DNA from: Candidatus Heimdallarchaeota archaeon B3_Heim
GTDB taxonomy: Archaea > Asgardarchaeota > Heimdallarchaeia > Hodarchaeales > Hodarchaeaceae
Length of the DNA: 15,065 nt
NCBI GenBank assembly: GCA_003144275.1
Contig: NJBF01000060.1
Location: 1-15,065 of the forward strand
Direction: 5' to 3'
The notes beneath the pieces are model-generated. The model had not been told where the DNA came from. It worked only from the letters and a program-made list of their open reading frames with translations, and made no database searches. Positions 1 through 14,888 of the stretch are shown in pieces. Within the stretch, counting starts at the first letter, position 1. Every line of letters begins with the position of its first letter. Position numbers and translations under genes: made by a program.

Positions 1-116
1 ATTTATCGGTTAGCGCGTGGCTGCCTGGCAGTACCCTTCTGGATAACCCGTACACTAGAGGCCCCCATACCCTGTTCCTCTCGTACTGAGGGCACGTTCC
101 TCTCACGAATCCAACA
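1..116 (-). repeat. 23S-rRNA-derived repeat, copy R0 (long type, cut by window edge)
   Basis: Nearly identical to 3715-3825 and 12620-12734. Reverse complement reads TGTTGGATTCGTGAGAGGAACGTGCCCTCAGTACGAGAGGAACAGGG; the sarcin-ricin loop is at 74-87. Confidence 0.92.
1..116 (-). rRNA. Partial 23S rRNA fragment (H94-H96, sarcin-ricin loop); not a full gene
   Basis: AGTACGAGAGGAAC followed by CTAGTGTACGGGTT...CTGCCAGGCAGC matches the LSU rRNA domain VI pattern. Protein genes lie directly upstream instead of domain V. Confidence 0.75.
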
Positions 117-139
117 CTGCTTCAAATATAGAATAAATA

Positions 140-1925: not shown

Positions 1926-2098
1926 AAGACCACCAGACAGAAGAGCAGAATTTGTTTATACAACAACACAGATACGCTAGTAGACGCCTGAAGGCTATTT
2001 TCAAGAAAAAACGAGAGGACTGAAAATTTTTACATTAATCTAAGAAGATTAACCCGTGTGCGAGGAGTGGGAGGGTGTAACAAATACTGAACATGTCG
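1926..2098 (-). repeat. Repeat copy R1a (trailer plus extreme 23S 3' end)
   Basis: CCTGAAGGCT at 1987, ACGAGAGGACTG at 2011, CCCGTGTGCGA at 2053, CTGAACATGTCG ending at 2098. Upstream AAGACCA...CAGAATTT...ACAACACA..CGCTA is shared with R2. Confidence 0.9.
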
Positions 2099-2458: not shown

Positions 2459-2746
2459 ATGACAGAGAAAGTTTCATTCTATGCAGACGAGAAAGCATGG
2501 GAAAGATTTAAAGATCAAGTTTATCGGTCTAGCGGAACCACACGAGCACTCAGTACTGAACTAAATAAACTTATTGAGGATAAAACATTAATTAAACTGG
2601 AAACACAATTAAAGGGATTAATACCAACCGAAGAGAAGTCCTCTTTCACTCTAGAAGAGATAAAAAAAGAAAGACCTACTCCTCCGGAAAAAGCAGAAAA
2701 CTTAATTCGCAAAATGAGGTCTGGGAATGCAGGTATATCTGGATAG
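2459..2746 (+). CDS. vapB: Putative antitoxin (RHH-like N-terminus)
   Basis: 95 aa, KVSFYADEKAWERFK strand-helix start, overlaps the downstream PIN gene by 20 bp. Confidence 0.7.
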   Translation: MTEKVSFYADEKAWERFKDQVYRSSGTTRALSTELNKLIEDKTLIKLETQLKGLIPTEEKSSFTLEEIKKERPTPPEKAENLIRKMRSGNAGISG

Positions 2747-3212
2747 TTCCATGATTGTTAAACGCTATATACAAGAGGAAGGAACCTCCTTTGCTGATTT
2801 CATTTATGAACAAGCAAATCAAGGGTACTTAACTATAACCTACAACCTTTTGAACATAGGAGAAGTATTGGGAGTATTCGACCAGTACTTAAACCGAAAA
2901 TGGATAACGAAAGACTCATTTGATGTACTTATAGCAAAATTTATTGATGAAATGCTACGACTTTTGCGCTTAGACAGGTTAATTATCATTCCAACCCATA
3001 GCACTCTCCAAATGGAGGCCTGGCCATTCATCTTAGAAAATCGCTTGTATATTGCTGATGCACTTCAATTAACAAGTGCATTGTATGTTAATACCCGATT
3101 ATTTGTCTCAGGGGATAAGGAATTAAACACAGTGGCACAGAAAAGCAATTTAGAGATATATCTCCCTACAAAGGAGAAAGAGATTATCCAAATGATAAGA
3201 AAACAAAGATAA
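2727..3212 (+). CDS. vapC: PIN-domain VapC toxin
   Basis: VYLDSSMIVKRY, NIGEVLGV, LYIADALQLTSA and FVSGDKEL PIN motifs. Confidence 0.9.
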   Translation: MQVYLDSSMIVKRYIQEEGTSFADFIYEQANQGYLTITYNLLNIGEVLGVFDQYLNRKWITKDSFDVLIAKFIDEMLRLLRLDRLIIIPTHSTLQMEAWPFILENRLYIADALQLTSALYVNTRLFVSGDKELNTVAQKSNLEIYLPTKEKEIIQMIRKQR

Positions 3213-3365
3213 GCCAGTAATAATGGTCGCCAACAATCTATTTTTCCTGAAGTGCCGTGAAACAGGAGGTACTCATTCTTGGACATTACAGGAGTTATCT
3301 TTAGACGAAACCGTCTTATCTAGAGAGATACATGAGAAAACTGCTCTTTCTAACAAAAATTAAGG

Positions 3366-3825
3366 AAGACCACAGGACATGAGATCAGAATTTTCTCAAG
3401 AAAACAACACATATCCGCTAATTGAATCCTGAAGGCTGTTTTTCTAAAAAAACGAGAGGACTGAAAATTTCCACATTTCTTCTAAGAAAGAGCCCGTGTG
3501 CGATTAGTAGCAGCTGACTGAACATGTCGATCGAAACCTCCACGCGTATTTCCAGTAGAAAATTGCTCTATCAACGGGATGTTCTATCCTAGCACTCGTT
3601 TACCGTTTCATGGTTATCATCGCCAATCCCCATGGCTTAACGCTGATGACAAAATGGATTCGTCTTTTCGAGGTCCGTTTCGTGCTTTTTCTTAAAGAAA
3701 GCATTCAGCACTTATCTATTAGCGCGTGGCTGCTGGGCAGTACCCTTCCTGATTGCCCGTACACTAGAGGCGCCCATACCCTGTTCCTCTCGTACTAAGG
3801 GCACGTTCCTCTCACGAATCCAACA
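3366..3825 (-). repeat. Repeat copy R2 (full length: 23S domain VI plus trailer)
   Basis: CCTGAAGGCT at 3428, ACGAGAGGACTG at 3452, rRNA-homologous part about 3490-3825, sarcin-ricin loop at 3783-3796. Confidence 0.95.
3490..3825 (-). rRNA. Partial 23S rRNA domain VI pseudo-copy (disrupted in H97)
   Basis: Reverse complement contains the SRL, GATAAGTGCTGAATGC, GTTGATAGAGC and GCTACTAATCGC as in LSU 3' ends. The conserved GCATCTAAG is replaced by a palindrome at 3688-3700. Confidence 0.75.
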
Positions 3826-3930
3826 AGGCCAATCTCCGAAAAATAGGTGAAATCAGAACTCTCAGAAGATCGGGTCAATATCAACAAATGAGTTTTACAC
3901 AACATGTATCTACACGATCAAAAATTGAGA

Positions 3931-4611
3931 TTAGTTAAAGATGGAGTATAATTTTACCCCATCCATTAAGATTAAAATTCCTAAAACGAGTAAAATAATA
4001 GCTAATCCTCTTTGTATCCAAAAGCTATATTTCATCCATCTTGCTAAGGTTGCTGATTTCACTTCAGTCCCTAATGCTCCTAAGACAATAAAAGGCAAGC
4101 CAAGACCAAAAGAATAAAGACAAAGAAGTATATATCCATAGACGAATTCACCTTGAATGGAGATCATCGTAAGAATAACTGAAATCATGGGTGTCATGCA
4201 AGGTATCCATGCCAAACCTGATATAAGTCCAAAAATACCGAACCCGATAATATTAAAGTTCTCAAAAACGCTCTTCAAAATCTCGGACTTGTTAAACTTT
4301 GATGTTCCAAAATCGAATCCAATTAATAGACCAAGAGCGAGTATGACAATTATAAACCCAGCAGAAATCCGAAATATGGGAAGAGAGAGGATTGTTTCAG
4401 GGAAAAGGGAAAGAATGAAATTATAACTCGAAAAAGTCAGGGTTAATCCTAAGGTATACAATACACCAGCCAAAACCCCTTTTCTTCGATCGATATTGTC
4501 GTTTGCTAATAGATACGAAATAAATATTGGGATTATAGCAAGGTGACACGGGCCTAGAAATGAAACAGCTCCCAGAGCGAAGGCGACGGGAATTAAAACT
4601 AGGTCGACCAT
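3931..4611 (-). CDS. ccdA: CcdA/DsbD-type transmembrane thiol-redox protein
   Basis: About six TM helices with SFLGPCHLAIIP and WIPCMTPMIS Cys-Pro motifs and YSFGLGLPF. Confidence 0.88.
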   Translation of the reverse strand: MVDLVLIPVAFALGAVSFLGPCHLAIIPIFISYLLANDNIDRRKGVLAGVLYTLGLTLTFSSYNFILSLFPETILSLPIFRISAGFIIVILALGLLIGFDFGTSKFNKSEILKSVFENFNIIGFGIFGLISGLAWIPCMTPMISVILTMISIQGEFVYGYILLCLYSFGLGLPFIVLGALGTEVKSATLARWMKYSFWIQRGLAIILLVLGILILMDGVKLYSIFN

Positions 4612-4613
4612 GG

Positions 4614-4931
4614 TTATTCTCTCTCTTTCATAATTATCTCAGGAGAAAGATTTAGAACCAACTTCTTTCTCAAAAATCCACCTAGCTTGATCTTAAATTC
4701 ATTAAGGTCTCTGTAAATGTCCAAAACTTCATTCTCAATTATGATCGGAATCTTGTGAATTTTCTCTAATGTGACGTTTTCTTGGTTTTGAAAATCATCC
4801 AGTTGAGAAAGGGGAATTATATTGATTTCCGGTTCCACAACAAAGCTACAACAACTCTCCGTTTTTTTAAGACGAATTAACATTCCATGGTTAGAGGGAA
4901 TTTTCTCTATCACTTTTTGATCTATTTCCAT
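4614..4931 (-). CDS. Small CC-motif protein (possibly HesB/IscA-like fold), function unknown
   Basis: 105 aa with ESCCSF, 2 bp from ccdA, same operon. Confidence 0.55.
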   Translation of the reverse strand: MEIDQKVIEKIPSNHGMLIRLKKTESCCSFVVEPEINIIPLSQLDDFQNQENVTLEKIHKIPIIIENEVLDIYRDLNEFKIKLGGFLRKKLVLNLSPEIIMKERE

Positions 4932-4955
4932 AGTCTGATCACGTGAATTTATGTC

Positions 4956-5660
4956 TCAGCTATTTTTCCGTTTGAGAATAATAAGAAAAATACAGATTAT
5001 ACTCCCCGTTAATCCCCAGGATAAATCTGTAGATTGAATAGATGTCGAAGGCGTCAATTGAGTCATGAGTTCTCCAGTATAATTGTCATTAGAATTTATT
5101 ATCAGCTTAAAGGAAAGAGCAATCCCCTCATAGTTAAAGATAATTTCGGAGTTATATGCTCCATTGCTATGGGTAAGTACGAAAGTGTCATTAGTCTCAG
5201 ATACGAGTGTAAAGTTCTTCCACCCCCAATCTTGTAATTGATACACAAGTGGTTTATAGGCATTACAACAGGCTCTAAAGACGTATTTAGGGATGATAAG
5301 TGGAGGAATTAATGAGAAAGGTGGTTCTTCATTCGCATATAGAATTGTACAATCCATATTACCATAGTACCCGTTATCTACTGCATCTGGTAATTTACCA
5401 ATAATAGCAATTATAACACTGCTTACTTCAAAGGAGAGAAATTCATCTCCATTTACACTAGTAATCTGGTAGCTAAGATTATCACCTTTCCTAAGATGAG
5501 GACTCCATTCTACTGGATAGGCCCCATTCGGAAAAGTGGTTTCACCTAAAGCTAGAGTATCTGGTGCCATTAGTGAGAATAATTGGAGCAGAATAATAAA
5601 CGCAAAAAGAAGAGAAAAATCTGTCCAGAAAATCTTCTTAACGGTATTTTCCTTCACCAA
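4956..5660 (-). CDS. Secreted/cell-surface protein with C-terminal membrane anchor
   Basis: N-terminal hydrophobic signal, Ser/Thr linker, C-terminal TM plus KRKNS tail, internal CC. Confidence 0.7.
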   Translation of the reverse strand: MVKENTVKKIFWTDFSLLFAFIILLQLFSLMAPDTLALGETTFPNGAYPVEWSPHLRKGDNLSYQITSVNGDEFLSFEVSSVIIAIIGKLPDAVDNGYYGNMDCTILYANEEPPFSLIPPLIIPKYVFRACCNAYKPLVYQLQDWGWKNFTLVSETNDTFVLTHSNGAYNSEIIFNYEGIALSFKLIINSNDNYTGELMTQLTPSTSIQSTDLSWGLTGSIICIFLIILKRKNS

Positions 5661-5739
5661 TCTTTTCCACCATTGATTATTTGTTTAAACAAAGATGAAA
5701 ACCCATGTTTTGAGGAGCTATATTAATACTTTGATATAT

Positions 5740-5753
5740 GTCGATGTATCGAC
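5740..5753. promoter_or_regulatory. Palindromic operator, second copy of the putative ArsR site
   Basis: GTCGAT-GT-ATCGAC. 5741-5752 is the exact reverse complement of TCGATACATCGA at 7900-7911. Confidence 0.55.
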
Positions 5754-5863
5754 CTTTCCGCATTCAAACAGAAAGGAAAATTGATAAATCTGGACGAGGC
5801 AAGATGGGTTAATACCCATTTGACAATGAACTTTTCTGGGTCTTTATATGAAAGATGTCTGAA

Positions 5864-6133
5864 TTATAATACATCACCAATTGGTAATGTTTTTCCAAGG
5901 AGCTTAAGGAGAGTTTGTTCTAGTAAGAAAACTGGGATGGATTCTCCATTGATCACAACCGTTTGGCCTCCAACACCAAGTTTGTGAGCACGGGAAGAAT
6001 CTGAGGTTAAGCTTTCTATTTCCAAGTAGTCTTTATACTTCATTAGGATATCCCACACATTGTCAATCCATGTTGCAAATGAACAACCGCATACTCCTAC
6101 TGGGGAAAACACCTCGACTTTGGGCTTCTTCAT
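5864..6133 (-). CDS. Small thioredoxin-fold protein (CxC motif)
   Basis: KVEVFSPVGVCGCSF...TVVINGE pattern, adjacent to a second thioredoxin-fold gene. Confidence 0.65.
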   Translation of the reverse strand: MKKPKVEVFSPVGVCGCSFATWIDNVWDILMKYKDYLEIESLTSDSSRAHKLGVGGQTVVINGESIPVFLLEQTLLKLLGKTLPIGDVL

Positions 6134-6150
6134 TTTGAGTTCACTAATAT

Positions 6151-6399
6151 CTATTCAGATTCTTGAAGCAATGCTACAAGCTTGTTTACTGGGAGATAGC
6201 GTCCAGAAAGAACAACTTTTCCATCCACAGCTAAAGCCGGAGTAGCGGAAATTCCCCTTTGGATCACATCCGCCATATCAGTGTTATAAAGAATTTTTAC
6301 GTGTGTCCAACCTAGCTTTTCTACTGCTTCTTCGGCGCTCTTTTTTAATGCTTTACATTTAGCACATCCAGGTCCGAAGACTTCTATTTCCTTTATCAT
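6151..6399 (-). CDS. MTH895/ArsE-type redox-active disulfide protein (thioredoxin family)
   Basis: IEVFGPGCAKC CxxC motif and GISATPALAVDGKVVLSGR; typical neighbour of DUF318 permeases. Confidence 0.88.
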   Translation of the reverse strand: MIKEIEVFGPGCAKCKALKKSAEEAVEKLGWTHVKILYNTDMADVIQRGISATPALAVDGKVVLSGRYLPVNKLVALLQESE

Positions 6400-6450
6400 A
6401 TTTATTTACACCTTCAAAATTTTCAATGTATAGTCTAATTGTTTCTACTC

Positions 6451-7866
6451 TTACCAAAGGCCAATTCCTTGGCCGAGAACGAATCCAAAAAGCAAGCCTG
6501 AAAATGTTGTGAAAAAAGTCACTAGGATCACATAAAATGAGTTTCGTCTATCCCCTAAATACTTCCGGGTAACAAGAATACTTTGTATGGATAATTCAGG
6601 ATCAGCTAATAAATACGCTAATAGCGGTCCACGAGCCATTCCAAGATCTAAGAAAATTCGGGCAATAGGGACTTCCATTAAGGTCGGAAAGTACATAAAT
6701 ACTCCAAATAACACTCCAATAAGATTTGCCAGGATTGTATTACTACCCACTAATTCTACAATAATTTCAGGGGGGATAAAATACTTAACAAATCCAGCAA
6801 TCACAACTCCAGAAATAATTAAGGGAAAAATTGATTTGACAAATATCCATGTTTCCAGTAACCAGGCATTTACATCATCTGCCTCAAACATCTTCCAGAT
6901 GAACAGGAGTAACCCCACGACCACTATTCCTGTTAAAACAACTTTGAGTAACATATTACTGATAGCTGGTGTGAGAAGAATTCCAAAGACGGTAAGGTCC
7001 TTTGTAAAATAAGTGATTTGAGAAGTTCCAGTCATTAACACATAAACTAACCATAAAAAAAGTCTTAATTCTTTACTGGAAAGCCTATAAGTTGTTAGAC
7101 CGAGTATGAGTAATCCGAGTACATAATTGAGGGTTTGAAGGATCGCAGGCGTTTGGAATAAAAATTCTATCATGGGTACCCCCACAAAGAATGTTCTACC
7201 AATCATCTCAACCATATTAGAATCCAACGTAGCTAAAAGTAATGAACAGATTCCCAAGCCAAAAATTAACACCACATTTAGTTTAGTGGTAGACTTTGTT
7301 GACTGACCATTAATGGCTGAATCTTGCGTCTTTGAAGGAGTATTTAAGTTCTCAGGATTATAGTGATGAGAATTGGTTAGATCTATCTCCTTTCCAAAGA
7401 CTTTAGCCATTATTAACCCAATTAAAAAAGCAAAAACAATAGCTAAAATACCTCTGGCTAGAGCAATATCCATTCCAACCAATGTACCTGTGTAAGTTAA
7501 TGCGAGAATATTAATAGCTGGAGCTACAAATAGAAATGTTATCGCTGGACCTAATCCTGCTCCCCGCTTCCAAATCCCCACAAATAGAGGTAATACTGTG
7601 CAACTACAGACTGCTAAAAGGAATCCTCCAGCTGTTGCCATTGGATATGCAATTTTAGGATCTGCATCTTTCCCCATGTAACGCGTAACGAGCTCTTTCG
7701 GGATGAAATAGGTCATGGCTCCTGCAATAAAAAACGCAGGGACAAGACATAACAACACATGTAAAGAGAGGTAATCTAGCAGTGTGGTAAGTGCACTTTC
7801 TAGTGCTCCTTGAAACATTTGGAATACATCGGACATTGAGTAGACCTTCGTAACAAAATTTTCCAC
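6451..7866 (-). CDS. arsP: DUF318/ArsP-family permease
   Basis: LCLVPAFFIAG, AVCSCTVLP, AITFLFVAPAINI, MYFPTLMEVPI and GPLLAYLLADPELS motifs; multi-TM. Confidence 0.85.
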   Translation of the reverse strand: MENFVTKVYSMSDVFQMFQGALESALTTLLDYLSLHVLLCLVPAFFIAGAMTYFIPKELVTRYMGKDADPKIAYPMATAGGFLLAVCSCTVLPLFVGIWKRGAGLGPAITFLFVAPAINILALTYTGTLVGMDIALARGILAIVFAFLIGLIMAKVFGKEIDLTNSHHYNPENLNTPSKTQDSAINGQSTKSTTKLNVVLIFGLGICSLLLATLDSNMVEMIGRTFFVGVPMIEFLFQTPAILQTLNYVLGLLILGLTTYRLSSKELRLFLWLVYVLMTGTSQITYFTKDLTVFGILLTPAISNMLLKVVLTGIVVVGLLLFIWKMFEADDVNAWLLETWIFVKSIFPLIISGVVIAGFVKYFIPPEIIVELVGSNTILANLIGVLFGVFMYFPTLMEVPIARIFLDLGMARGPLLAYLLADPELSIQSILVTRKYLGDRRNSFYVILVTFFTTFSGLLFGFVLGQGIGLW

Positions 7867-7870
7867 TTAT

Positions 7871-7914
7871 ATATCGAAAACTATCGATATATAAACATAT
7901 CGATACATCGAAAT
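7871..7914. promoter_or_regulatory. Putative ArsR operator pair overlapping the TATA box of the permease operon
   Basis: ATATCGA-AAACTA-TCGATAT (7871-7890) and ATATCGA-TACA-TCGAAAT (7897-7914). The minus-strand TTTATATA at 7888-7895 is 22-29 bp from the start codon. Confidence 0.65.
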
Positions 7915-8045
7915 ATTTTTTAAGAAGACCTTCGACACTGTCTAAATAAGCGTCTTCTAGGCTTTTATGGCGCAAATTTACAAGAGAATAAAGGGAAATT
8001 TCCTTTTTTCAGGTACGTACTATTATCAGAATCAGTTCAGGATTT

Positions 8046-8438
8046 ATGGATATGGAAACTCCTGTGTTAGAAGCAAGACTTAAAGATCTAATTGATGCCG
8101 AATTAGTTTCATGGAAATCTGTTTCAAAGCGATTAAACTACCTTAATCAGCTAAAAATTAAATTAACATCATTAGATGAACAAGCGGATTTCAAGGAGTT
8201 TGGAAAGATGATCAAAGCTCTGAATCATCCTATTCGGATTCAGATTCTCCTTGCTATTGATAAAGGAGTGACATGTGCCTGTGAATTGGAGTATTTAACT
8301 GAACTTGCCCAAGCGACAATCTCTCATCACTTATCTTTACTAGAAGATGCAAATCTGATAGCCCGAATTAAGGAAGGTAAACGAAACTTTTTTTCAATAA
8401 AAAACCAACAGCTTCTTGATTCTCTTATAACGTTCTAG
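8046..8438 (+). CDS. arsR: ArsR/SmtB-family transcriptional repressor
   Basis: ALNHPIRIQIL, TCACEL (CxC) and QATISHHLSLLEDANLI HTH; divergent from the permease. Confidence 0.9.
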   Translation: MDMETPVLEARLKDLIDAELVSWKSVSKRLNYLNQLKIKLTSLDEQADFKEFGKMIKALNHPIRIQILLAIDKGVTCACELEYLTELAQATISHHLSLLEDANLIARIKEGKRNFFSIKNQQLLDSLITF

Positions 8439-8475: not shown

Positions 8476-8720
8476 TGACCACTATCGCTTGCGAGGAAAT
8501 ATTAACTTTCTAAAAAACTCACGAACACACGCTATTAGACTCCTGAAGGCTTTTTTTATGAAAAAACGAGAGGACTGAAAATTTCCACACTATTCCAAGA
8601 AGAGACACCCTTGTGCGATTAGTGGGAGTGTGTATTAAACACTAAACATGTCGACGGGCCTCCACGCGTATTTCTTTAAAGAAAATTGCTCTAATAGCGG
8701 AATTTCTCTCTAGAAGAGCA
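8476..8720 (-). repeat. Repeat copy R3 (trailer plus about 110 bp of 23S 3' end)
   Basis: CCTGAAGGCT at 8542, ACGAGAGGACTG, TGTGCGATTAG, AACATGTCGA, CCTCCACGCGTA and TTGCTCTA; homology fades near 8700-8720. Confidence 0.9.
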
Positions 8721-9674: not shown

Positions 9675-9745
9675 TAGATTAGGATCTAGTTTGTATTCAT
9701 GATAGGTTATGAGTGCAAGAAGTATAAAGAAGAATAACCAGACGG

Positions 9746-9828
9746 AAGACCAGAAGACGCAGGAACACACGTGTTACGACTCCTTAAGGCTATTACTTTT
9801 CAGTAAAAGAGAGGACTGACACCTTCCC
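9746..9828 (-). repeat. Repeat copy R4 (trailer only, shortest)
   Basis: AAGACCAG...AACACAC...ACGACTCCTTAAGGCTATTACT..AGTAAAAGAGAGGACTG matches the R3 and R6 trailers. Confidence 0.8.
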
Positions 9829-11516: not shown

Positions 11517-12353
11517 ATGCGAAAATTCTACTCAAAGAATTTCTTAATTGTCTTTTTTCTCTTATTATACCTCTATCCAATTCAAAGCATACATTGTACT
11601 TCCCATAATGAACCAAGACTTATCCCTTTTATCGGAATGGTTTTAAAATATAGACTGGAAGCGCATCTTGAAGTAGGATTACCTATACCAATACCAGTCA
11701 TTGCAAACTGGACAGTTGTCTGGGAACAGTATAATACATCAAACCCCGATATTTTTATATCTCAATTAACTTTAACATCGCTTTATTTGACTTTGTACGG
11801 TGGAATTGGTCAAGAATCTGGTATCATTGTAGAGAATATCACTTCTCGCCGGGTATTATGGGTTGAGATGGAAAATACGACCTTTTTAGAGAAAATGTAT
11901 TCACTATATTATGCTCCACATCGACCCAATTATTCTCCTTTTTATATTCCCACAGAAGATCTAGGTATCAACAGTAGTATTGGTATCTACAATTATTCAA
12001 TGACTGTTATTGCTAAAGATAGAATTGCAGTGAGTGAATTTGGTTATCGTGATGTGTGGATTATACATAAAAATGTGACAAGTTCAAGTGCGGTGAACCA
12101 TTTTATTAGCTTAATCTATGATGAGATTACAGGTGTTCTTGTGGGAGGCAGTCTTTACACCCATTGGTTTTGGGAGAATGGTACTGAGCATATATACAGT
12201 GTTAAAATTATTTGTCAGTCTACAAATGCATTAGCAAGGCATTTAATCATCATTAGACCCAATGAACTACTTGCTATACTAATTAGTTGTGTACCAATAA
12301 TCCCCTCTTTAATGAAAATAATGAAGTTCAAGGAAATCAGAGGTGGTCTCTAG
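11517..12353 (+). CDS. Secreted/membrane-anchored hypothetical protein
   Basis: Signal-peptide-like N-terminus, beta-rich body, C-terminal hydrophobic segment with basic tail. The stop codon abuts R5. Confidence 0.65.
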   Translation: MRKFYSKNFLIVFFLLLYLYPIQSIHCTSHNEPRLIPFIGMVLKYRLEAHLEVGLPIPIPVIANWTVVWEQYNTSNPDIFISQLTLTSLYLTLYGGIGQESGIIVENITSRRVLWVEMENTTFLEKMYSLYYAPHRPNYSPFYIPTEDLGINSSIGIYNYSMTVIAKDRIAVSEFGYRDVWIIHKNVTSSSAVNHFISLIYDEITGVLVGGSLYTHWFWENGTEHIYSVKIICQSTNALARHLIIIRPNELLAILISCVPIIPSLMKIMKFKEIRGGL

Positions 12354-12734
12354 TTTTTTTTCTAAGAAAACGAGAGGACTGACCATTTCCACATTTCTTC
12401 TAAGAAATAGTCCGTGTGCGAGGAGTGGGAGTGTGTCATAAACACTGAACATGTCGACCGAGGGCTCCACGCGTACACAACTGCTCTGTCAACGGGATGT
12501 TCTATCCCAGCACTCGTTTACCATCTCATGGTTACCGTCGCCAGTCCCCATGGCTTTGCGCTGATGGCAAAATGGATTCGTCTTTTCGAGGTTCGTTTCG
12601 TACTTAGATGCATTCAGCACTTATCGGTTAGCGCGTGGCTGCCGGGCAGTACCCTTCCGGATAACCCGTACACTAGAGGCGCCCATACCCTGTTCCTCTC
12701 GTACTAAGGGCACGTTCCTCTCATGAATCCGACA
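12354..12734 (-). repeat. Repeat copy R5 (full 23S domain VI plus trailer lacking the CCTGAAGG end)
   Basis: ACGAGAGGACTG at 12370, rRNA-homologous part about 12409-12734, sarcin-ricin loop at 12692-12705. Confidence 0.95.
12409..12734 (-). rRNA. Partial 23S rRNA domain VI copy (best preserved)
   Basis: Reverse complement has the SRL, CTGCCCGGCAGC and GATAAGTGCTGAATGCATCTAAGTACGAAAC (close to canonical GATAAGTGCTGAAAGCATCTAAGCACGAAAC), then an extended H98 and H100-H101. Confidence 0.8.
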
Positions 12735-12796
12735 ACTAGAATAGAAGAAAAAGTATTGGATTTCATAACGTAATAGGCTTTAAGAGAGGATCTAGA

Positions 12797-13285
12797 TTAA
12801 ATAATTCTTGAACGTAACCTTAAGATTCGTTTAGCTTTTTGTTTGGGGATAATTTTCCACTCACGAAATAACCTGACTACCTGATAAAGCTCATTGGGAG
12901 AAATCTCTCCTTCCAGTAGCAAAAAACCAAAATAATCAGCAATATGTAGTGCTTTTAATGCGCCATTCATCGTATTTTCTAGCAACATTGGATGATCTTC
13001 TGTAATAATAGGATAACCAGAGAATTCACCATATTCCAAGAGTGAAGCATCAGCTTCATCAAAACACTGTTTAAGAAATTTGTTGAAATGTTTGTTTAAC
13101 CTCGGAAGGATTGTCACATTACGAAAAAAGACCTCTTCATCAGGAAAACGATGGAGTAACTCCTTGTGAACATCATGTGTAATCATAAATTCTTTTCGCT
13201 CCATTATTCTCGAAATTAAGTTAGAAAAACCATTATCTCGTAAAAGAAGGATGTAGAACCATGAAAGAGTATCAACTCCAAACAT
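12797..13285 (-). CDS. PIN-domain (DUF3368-like) protein; true start likely MFGVDT at 13285
   Basis: GVDTLSW, THDVHKEL, DEADASLL and IITEDH acidic PIN pattern. Confidence 0.72.
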   Translation of the reverse strand: MFGVDTLSWFYILLLRDNGFSNLISRIMERKEFMITHDVHKELLHRFPDEEVFFRNVTILPRLNKHFNKFLKQCFDEADASLLEYGEFSGYPIITEDHPMLLENTMNGALKALHIADYFGFLLLEGEISPNELYQVVRLFREWKIIPKQKAKRILRLRSRII

Positions 13286-13307
13286 GGTTTGAAAAACCAA
13301 CACAAGC

Positions 13308-13315
13308 TTTATAAA
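13308..13315. promoter_or_regulatory. Palindromic TATA box shared by two divergent, likely leaderless genes
   Basis: TTTATAAA lies 23-30 bp from both ATG 13285 (-) and ATG 13338 (+). Confidence 0.6.
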
Positions 13316-13337
13316 CATATTGGCCTGTTATCTAACC

Positions 13338-13667
13338 ATGAGTCAACTAAGTTTCAAATTTCCAGAAAAAGAACGCAGTTTTCTAAAATGGTATTCAGAG
13401 AAAACCTCCGAACCACTGGGAACAATATATCGCAAAGTAACACTGGAACACTTCATACATTGGAAAAAAACTGTCTTGATAGAGGCGTATCTCAATGGTT
13501 CAATCGGAATAAAACAATTTGCTAACTTAGGGGGAATGACATTCAATGAATGTTTCCTCTTACTTAAACAAAACAATATCGACCCTCCGTATAATGAATT
13601 GTTAGATATCCATTCAGCTCAAGTGATGGAAGAACAGCTTATACAACCAAAGAAAAACCTCAAGTGA
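13338..13667 (+). CDS. UPF0175-like antitoxin (RHH plus HTH); start likely MSQLSF at 13338
   Basis: QLSFKFPEKE strand-helix N-terminus. AYLNGSIGIKQFANLGGMTFNECFLLLKQNNI resembles the UPF0175 HTH. Confidence 0.68.
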   Translation: MSQLSFKFPEKERSFLKWYSEKTSEPLGTIYRKVTLEHFIHWKKTVLIEAYLNGSIGIKQFANLGGMTFNECFLLLKQNNIDPPYNELLDIHSAQVMEEQLIQPKKNLK

Positions 13668-13706
13668 TTACCGATATCTACCGTAAACTCAATTTCATGA
13701 TATTTT

Positions 13707-13818
13707 TACGACTCCCGGAGGCTATTACTTCTAGTAAACGAGAGGACTGCCCATTTCCACACTAATTTTTCATTAGTAGCCCGTGTGCGATTAGGGGGAG
13801 TTAAATTTCTAAGACTCC
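13707..13818 (-). repeat. Repeat copy R6 (trailer plus a few rRNA bases)
   Basis: TACGACTCCCGGAGGCTATTACT..AGTAAACGAGAGGACTGCCCATTTCCACA..GCCCGTGTGCGATTAG. Confidence 0.88.
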
Positions 13819-14648: not shown

Positions 14649-14719
14649 TGCTCCAATAAGAAAATACGTCTCTATCCTTAATAACTCATTTTGTTAATCC
14701 AGTTATTCATGGTGGATGT

Positions 14720-14888
14720 CCTGAAGGCTATTTCTGCAAAAGAAACGAGAGGACTGAAAATTTCCACAACTCTAAAAAGAAAGAGCCCGTGTGCGAGGAG
14801 TGGTAATATGTCTTAAACATTAAACTTGTCGGTTGAAATTTCTATGTATAATTCTTGAATAAGACCCCTCTCTCATCGGGATTGTTCT
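14720..14888 (-). repeat. Repeat copy R7 (trailer plus degenerate 23S 3' end)
   Basis: CCTGAAGGCT at 14720, ACGAGAGGACTGAAAATTTCCACA, GAGCCCGTGTGCGAGGAGTGG, and CTCTCTCATCGGGATTGTTCT (14868-14888), which resembles CTCTGTCAACGGGATGTTCT. Confidence 0.88.

Follow-up and report, generated by a model that had tools for sequence, protein, structure and literature searches.

The DNA examined here, referred to as the window, is one whole contig of 15,065 bases from a 3.95-Mb MAG with 36% GC. The repeated units in the window are orphan tails of the 23S rRNA gene that bound gene cassettes, an identification we regard as secure. Equally secure is the nature of the four nearly constant boxes found in the units. 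They are the trailer (3') strand of the pre-23S processing stem, which pairs with the 23S leader in the genuine gene. Between the boxes are two slots, A and B, each holding a small hairpin whose sequence changes from unit to unit. The covariation in these two slots is real, and the evidence supports the view that the units are not in neutral pseudogene decay.

Two archaeal 23S 3'-end fragments were identified with Rfam on the minus strand of the window, at 3498-3825 and 12431-12734 (model positions 2721-2973 of 2987). A third is truncated by the contig start (2-140). The minus strand is the 23S sense strand. At the gathering score the window matches no Rfam family other than LSU rRNA, and ARAGORN detected no tRNA or tmRNA in it. 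The trailer core lies 3' of the 23S fragments in the 23S direction and elsewhere stands alone. In addition to the truncated 23S fragment at 2-140, seven copies of the core are present in the window, and there are 22 in the genome, on four contigs. Retrieval of loci from eight genomes of one Hodarchaeota genus yielded 119 copies, with a single orientation per contig throughout.

The MAG contains no full 23S gene. One metagenome contig matches window positions 12596-12734 at ∼93% and continues into genuine 23S sequence, so the true gene is present in the sample and was not binned or assembled with the MAG. A search of this subclade for a complete 23S gene with leader and trailer found none. The candidates were a G009 region that lacks 23S, an orphan fragment in G010, and a different, GC-rich 23S on G001:C57. 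Annotators should not dismiss the 23S 3' fragments of these genomes as debris of assembly.

The anatomy of the units was derived from a 586-position profile built on the long copies, and units were mapped by nhmmer with this long unit profile. In the 23S sense, the order is the 23S part, the last 23S helices, B4, slot B, B3, a 4-nt linker, B2, slot A, B1 and a distal trailer, which extends ∼60 nt beyond B1 and terminates in an oligo-T run. The 3' ends of units concentrate at the oligo-T of the operon (51/129). The 5' ends form two clusters, one at the 23S limit and one just upstream of B4. The start of long copies is near Rfam model position 2716, that of short copies near the last 23S helix. 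The 5' limit of the long type is sharp, lies just before the sarcin-ricin loop and falls at the identical point in all genomes. In every genome of the genus, the long orphan 23S fragments all begin within a few bases of GACGUGUUGG, ∼25 nt before the sarcin-ricin loop (window 110-125, 3820-3830 and 12728-12740; L003:1-20, L052:780-800 and L058:4586-4600). This common start is suggestive of a second breakpoint, a site-specific one, within the 23S gene.

All units of the window are on the minus strand. U0 (2-140) is the orphan 23S 3' fragment cut by the contig start. U1 (1918-2102) is a whole orphan unit of the short type, matched by nhmmer at profile positions 309-491 and 222-281; a decayed 23S remnant belonging to it was detected with the long unit profile at 2319-2387. 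U2 (3303-3847; Rfam 139 bits) is a long unit that runs from about model position 2716 to the end of 23S, then through the trailer to the oligo-T. U3 (8512-8707), U6 (13643-13803) and U7 (14718-14888) were mapped by nhmmer with the long unit profile. U4 (9723-9827) is truncated to B2, slot A, B1 and the distal trailer. U5 (12312-12757; Rfam 169.5 bits) is a long unit without B1. Slot A of U5 is at 12354-12369, and the stop codon of the ORF at 11517-12353 is found just beyond it, at the place expected for B1. The cassette border at U5 is the edge of slot A. The ORF itself encodes 278 aa without a Pfam match and ends at U5 (12343-12381).

Some long orphans are altered within the 23S part. An A·T palindrome in the style of TTTCTTnnAAGAAA takes the place of AUCU in the universally conserved 23S loop GCUGAAxGCAUCUAAGC. 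It was found in three orphan fragments from two genomes (window 3681-3700, in U2; L003:150-175; L052:930-955). These three fragments have a common ancestor and cannot be working rRNA.

The motifs listed in the first-pass annotation, for the core at 1987-2062 of U1 and for the other copies, are all present in the sequence at the coordinates given. On the plus strand, positions 1987-2063 comprise CCTGAAGGCT (1987-1996), slot A (1997-2010), ACGAGAGGACTG (2011-2022), AAAA, TTTTTACA (2027-2034), slot B (2035-2052) and CCCGTGTGCGA (2053-2063). The boxes are read on the minus strand. B1 (1987-1996; AGCCUUCAGG in the RNA sense) forms the trailer side of the processing stem's outer helix and was found in 81/119 copies. 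B2 (CAGUCCUCUCGU), the variable 4-nt linker and B3 (UGUGGAAA, in U1 UGUAAAAA) make up an invariant core at 2011-2034. This core is the best conserved stretch across all units, and its linker occurs in 16 variants. B4 (UCGCACACGGG; 2053-2063) is the 3' strand that closes the last 23S helices. It lies within the Rfam LSU model, whose alignment to the end of the genuine G004 23S extends through it.

Archaeal pre-rRNA forms a leader-trailer helix with a bulge-helix-bulge that is cut by EndA (PMC7038931, PMC8339473). B3, B2 and B1 are the trailer strand of this stem. G007 has both flanks of its gene in the assembly, and its leader folds together with the genuine trailer (-48.6 kcal/mol) in a helix through the equivalents of B3, B2 and B1. 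The leader motif AGAGGACUG of G016 and G001 is the exact complement of B2 of the window units, and the G016 leader also pairs with B1; these are leaders of congeners, since the leader of this genome is not in the assembly. Between species, B2 varies together with the leader. The leader side has a bulge of 2-3 nt, no matching trailer bulge is evident and a canonical 3-4-3 bulge-helix-bulge could not be drawn. The constancy of the boxes is explained by their origin as the trailer strand of this stem. Unlike a working processing stem, the orphans have no leader partner nearby, and their hairpins are additions that the genuine stems examined do not show. A pairing between B4 and B3 (CACA with UGUG) was also considered and rejected, as variation on one side only gives it no covariation support.

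Hairpins A and B are absent from all four genuine trailers found (G004, G007 and two metagenome contigs). These trailers have CAGT(T) at slot A and CTAACCG or CGACCG (about C(T/G)AACCG) at slot B. Most orphans carry the hairpins, and a few hybrids have hairpin A and lack hairpin B. The hairpins are orphan-specific by comparison with genuine trailers from other species of the genus, those of this genome and its closest relatives being unassembled.

In U1, slot A (1997-2010) has a 5 bp A·T-rich stem and slot B (2035-2052) a 7 bp stem, neither of which is assigned to a strand. Covariation was examined in alignment A1, which contains 45 hairpin-bearing units and leaves out 12 units that are hairpin-less or of odd length. 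In A1, 87.7% of the cells are paired. Shuffles gave 78.1±0.9%, with 0/500 reaching the observed value, and sliding the partners reduced pairing to 43-57%. The earlier description of nearly constant boxes separated by linkers that change and remain self-complementary is accurate for slots A and B on this measure. Cells altered on both sides number 77, compared with 30.8±6.8 expected from the shuffles. Such double changes affect 5/5 slot B pairs and 3/5 slot A pairs, the latter being A1 pairs (57,67), (58,66) and (59,65).

Perfect arms of at least 5 bp are found in 58% of the slot A sequences and 51% of those of slot B. For length-matched windows drawn at random from the intergenic DNA of this genome the values were 1.6% and 3.9%, respectively, and shuffled slots gave 8-10%. 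The hairpins thus exceed the intergenic background 13- to 36-fold and are not a general property of intergenic DNA in this genome. Linkage in the 45 units provided the strongest control. An association is seen between the two arms of a hairpin (z 5.0-6.1) and nowhere else, as slot A, slot B, the linker, the box variants and the flank vary independently of one another (|z|<1.6). Because linkage is confined to the arms, the pairing cannot be put down to a few alleles passed on by common descent. The slots are fixed in position and length (14-15 nt for A, 17-18 nt for B). Unconstrained positions are saturated, while the boxes are fixed and the hairpin arms complementary, which upholds the earlier argument against neutral pseudogene decay. 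Both outcomes that the first-pass annotation named as contrary to its view, a lack of significant covariation and a like gain of hairpins in the intergenic DNA of this genome, are contradicted by these results. The covarying hairpins indicate selection on the copies.

The stems consist of 5-7 A·T-rich pairs, with TTACT/AGTAA and CTAAT/ATTAG as common types. A third covarying slot, C, had been proposed. It does not hold up, for AGTGT/ACACT is one conserved sequence in about 14/79 units and the example at 13797-13818 is out of register. A snap-back or P-nucleotide-like mechanism would make the arms inverted copies of the boxes beside them, which they are not, and it was rejected as the source of the palindromes.

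RNAalifold produced no consensus structure from the 45 units, and no unit folds better than its own shuffles, whether treated as RNA or DNA. G·U pairs are about equally frequent on the two strands, with 21 in the sense and 24 in the antisense direction. Together with the hairpin-less genuine trailers, this equality makes selection at the RNA level on the rRNA strand unlikely and is the reason for considering a DNA-level role. The first-pass annotation had proposed selection on folded ssDNA or RNA. This proposal is partly supported, and its RNA half loses ground for the reason just given.

Arrays of units lie behind the 23S gene in Hodarchaeota of one genus, where the units separate accessory-gene cassettes of 1-5 kb. 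The cargo of the window includes two or three PIN/VapBC-type pairs, Fic, GNAT, an ABC exporter and an ArsP-ArsR-thioredoxin-DsbD set. Sibling contigs carry P5C reductase, a methyltransferase, a peptidase S9, Ras-like GTPases and Hcp. The toxin-antitoxin (TA) pairs in the window occur one per cassette, at 140-824, 2459-3212 and 12797-13667. Two are PIN-domain pairs and the third is TA-like, with weak matches to antitoxin families. The first PIN pair recurs in the arrays of G003 and G018 with 76-77% identity. The largest cassette (3931-8438) is a metal/redox module with a DsbD-like membrane protein, two unknowns, a small protein, thioredoxin, an ArsP-type permease and a divergent ArsR.

G013, the closest relative (92-95% identity), has cassettes in common with the window in a different order. 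When blocks at least 88% identical between genomes were compared, 27/57 synteny block ends fell in units, which comprise 7.8% of the DNA. About two thirds of the block ends in units are between slot B and slot A, that is, in the core region; the placing of BLAST block ends within shared boxes is approximate, and the figure therefore describes a tendency and not a mapped cut site. Other breakpoints within the unit are at profile positions 139-351 and ∼445. In junction alignments of G000 with G013, one switch falls between B2 and B1 and another before slot C. Different window units are joined, often at slot A edges, on contigs from four marine-sediment metagenomes, although these are short contigs of relatives that represent mosaic units and not proven rearrangement events.

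The enrichment of block ends in units, the B2/B1 switch and the metagenome joins at slot A edges suggest that the orphan tails would serve as joints for the gain, loss and reshuffling of cassettes. The reading we favour, at somewhat less than an even chance, is that the hairpins are DNA-level parts of a recombination site in which the 24-nt core is the crossover zone. Crossover would occur within the invariant UGUGGAAA-N4-CAGUCCUCUCGU stretch. The flanking hairpins would be retained by selection as structural parts of the site at the DNA level, recognised on either strand or in the form of a small cruciform or of folded ssDNA. The genuine trailer, without hairpins, would be the docking site, and the recombinase would be encoded outside the arrays.

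Tyrosine recombinase (PF00589) had no match on the array contigs of 6 genomes, whose array starts are not all assembled, and no serine recombinase is present on any array contig. The sole recombinase common to all these genomes is an XerA-like tyrosine recombinase, encoded by one gene per genome off the array; that XerA is the enzyme is a guess. The HUH transposase family PF01797 is absent from G000, G007, G013 and G020 and has one match in G018, off the array. The units are in this respect unlike the end hairpins of IS200/IS605-type elements, and the earlier comparison with HUH-recognised hairpins is not borne out, as no Y1 transposase is present on the array contigs. No mobile circular form was seen, and the core motif has no exact match in IMG/VR. 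The absence of a recombinase from the array contigs, of a circular form and of the core from IMG/VR weakens the recombination-site reading. A match to a 'Caulobacterales' contig was dismissed as chance, because the contig has 50% GC and no unit-profile match and about one such match is expected.

The hairpins themselves pose further difficulties for the recombination site. To our knowledge, every DNA hairpin recognised by an enzyme is far stronger than a stem of 5 A·T pairs. Recognition of the hairpins is made less credible by this weakness and by fold energies equal to those of shuffles. A site with two hairpins also leaves unexplained the similar palindromes elsewhere in the 23S-derived part of orphans. 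The block ends, moreover, may reflect plain homologous recombination between similar units, given that breakpoints also occur outside the core at profile positions 139-351 and ∼445 and that BLAST ends in the boxes are imprecise.

Readings that dispense with a recombination site were weighed against the same data. It is unlikely that the hairpins are two-way transcription stops or insulators. On that reading, selection added palindromes of a T-run and an A-run to tails stranded between cassettes, so that each strand would have a U-tract with a small hairpin, and cassettes would be protected against read-through from the rRNA genes and against one another. The arms are indeed T-rich and then A-rich, G·U tolerance is the same on both strands, and the unit already terminates in the operon oligo-T. 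In the window, 5/7 units are flanked by convergent genes, and palindromes in convergent intergenic regions of this genome are 1.75x shuffles. Over 88 units, however, the orientation of flanking genes is near random (26 convergent, 48 tandem, 14 divergent), and the common stems TTACT/AGTAA and CTAAT/ATTAG contain no T-run. Archaeal termination requires a U-tract and not a stem, so covariation is not predicted by this role, which also leaves the invariant core unexplained. We consider it improbable, more so than a transcription stop, that the structure was inherited from rRNA, such that the hairpins are small expansion segments of the working 23S trailers of donor strains, inserted elements brought their own tails and the covariation is now fossil. 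Pairing of the boxes with the leader, covariation of B2 with the leader between species, the well-scoring 23S part retained by some long orphans (169.5 bits) and the position of slot A at a processing-stem junction, where a third helix is tolerated, would all be expected if this were so. It is difficult to reconcile with the four genuine trailers that lack hairpins, the lack of a sense-strand G·U excess and negligible RNA stability, and palindromes of the same kind break a universally conserved 23S loop in orphans.

An origin without function is given the same low probability as inheritance from rRNA. Replication template switches would renew quasi-palindromes from one ancestral origin and mimic compensation, with gene conversion keeping the boxes alike. 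The strand-neutral symmetry and the absence of a thermodynamic signal fit such a process. A deletion joint in long orphans and loops of their 23S-derived part also carry palindromes in the style of TTTCTT..AAGAAA, and in one clearly orthologous unit pair the hairpin is decaying through point changes. (Regional divergence within syntenic blocks was discarded because it is dominated by non-orthologous units at block edges.) The process cannot be general, however, as palindromes in the intergenic DNA of this genome are just 1.3x shuffles. The slots have also kept their position and length over 119 old, saturated copies, and gene conversion should link neighbouring segments, for which no linkage was seen.

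If the hairpins are parts of a recombination site, a wider model can be drawn, which we consider possible and rather doubtful: an integron-like gene capture in Hodarchaeota, with the orphan 23S tail as the attC equivalent, crossover in the 24-nt core between structure-selected mini-hairpins, docking at the genuine trailer and a host recombinase in place of a dedicated integrase. Asgard archaea would then have a platform for capturing cassettes at the end of their rRNA operon, and with it a route of gene flow in the lineage closest to eukaryotes that is not described in the literature searched. No description of such arrays was found there either. The invariant 24-nt core between two small stems offers a testable site, usable for binding and cleavage assays and for junction-read searches.

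An attC site is one imperfect hairpin in which R''-L'' pairs with L'-R', with RYYYAAC / GTTRRRY core sites and extrahelical bases. The earlier likening of the units to attC fails at this level, as they have two separate A·T hairpins of 5-7 bp around a non-palindromic, invariant 24-nt core, and IntI is absent. At the level of the array the resemblance is closer. The comparison extends to chromosomal cassette arrays, among them attC clusters that lack an integrase (CALIN) and the archaeal integrons described by Ghaly et al. 2022 (10.1101/2022.02.06.479319). As in integron attC arrays, one-directional repeats separate small cassettes with TA-rich cargo, pairing is kept while sequence varies, and cassette order differs between close relatives. 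Unlike in integrons, the site is derived from a 23S rRNA tail, no IntI-type recombinase is present and the cassette genes run in both directions.

The units also resemble the islands at tRNA and tmRNA 3' ends. A displaced 3' gene part (LSU 2721-2973) and its trailer form direct repeats in the orientation of the gene, and the sharp 5' limit of the long type is expected of an att site within a gene. They differ from these islands in that the target is 23S rRNA, the modules are 1-5 kb without integrase, and the copies are old, diverged and mosaic, with added hairpins. A looser parallel is HVR2 of SAR11, a large variable island directly behind 23S, after the 16S-23S pair, in which tRNA genes are held as anchors and no rRNA-tail repeats bounding cassettes are reported (PMC2217521; 10.64898/2026.04.03.716430).

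Two further observations concern 23S genes other than the orphans. The genuine 23S of G007 (L028:17308-17629, G007:C8) has an insertion of ∼320 nt, ∼40 nt upstream of the model-2716 breakpoint, which may be an intron or an intervening sequence. On G001:C57 (L035:3262-3295 and 3381-3415), from a MAG of the same genus, the trailer strand of the processing stem of the GC-rich 23S is duplicated ∼120 nt downstream. This duplication may represent the same process in minimal form; alternatively, the contig may be a contaminant.
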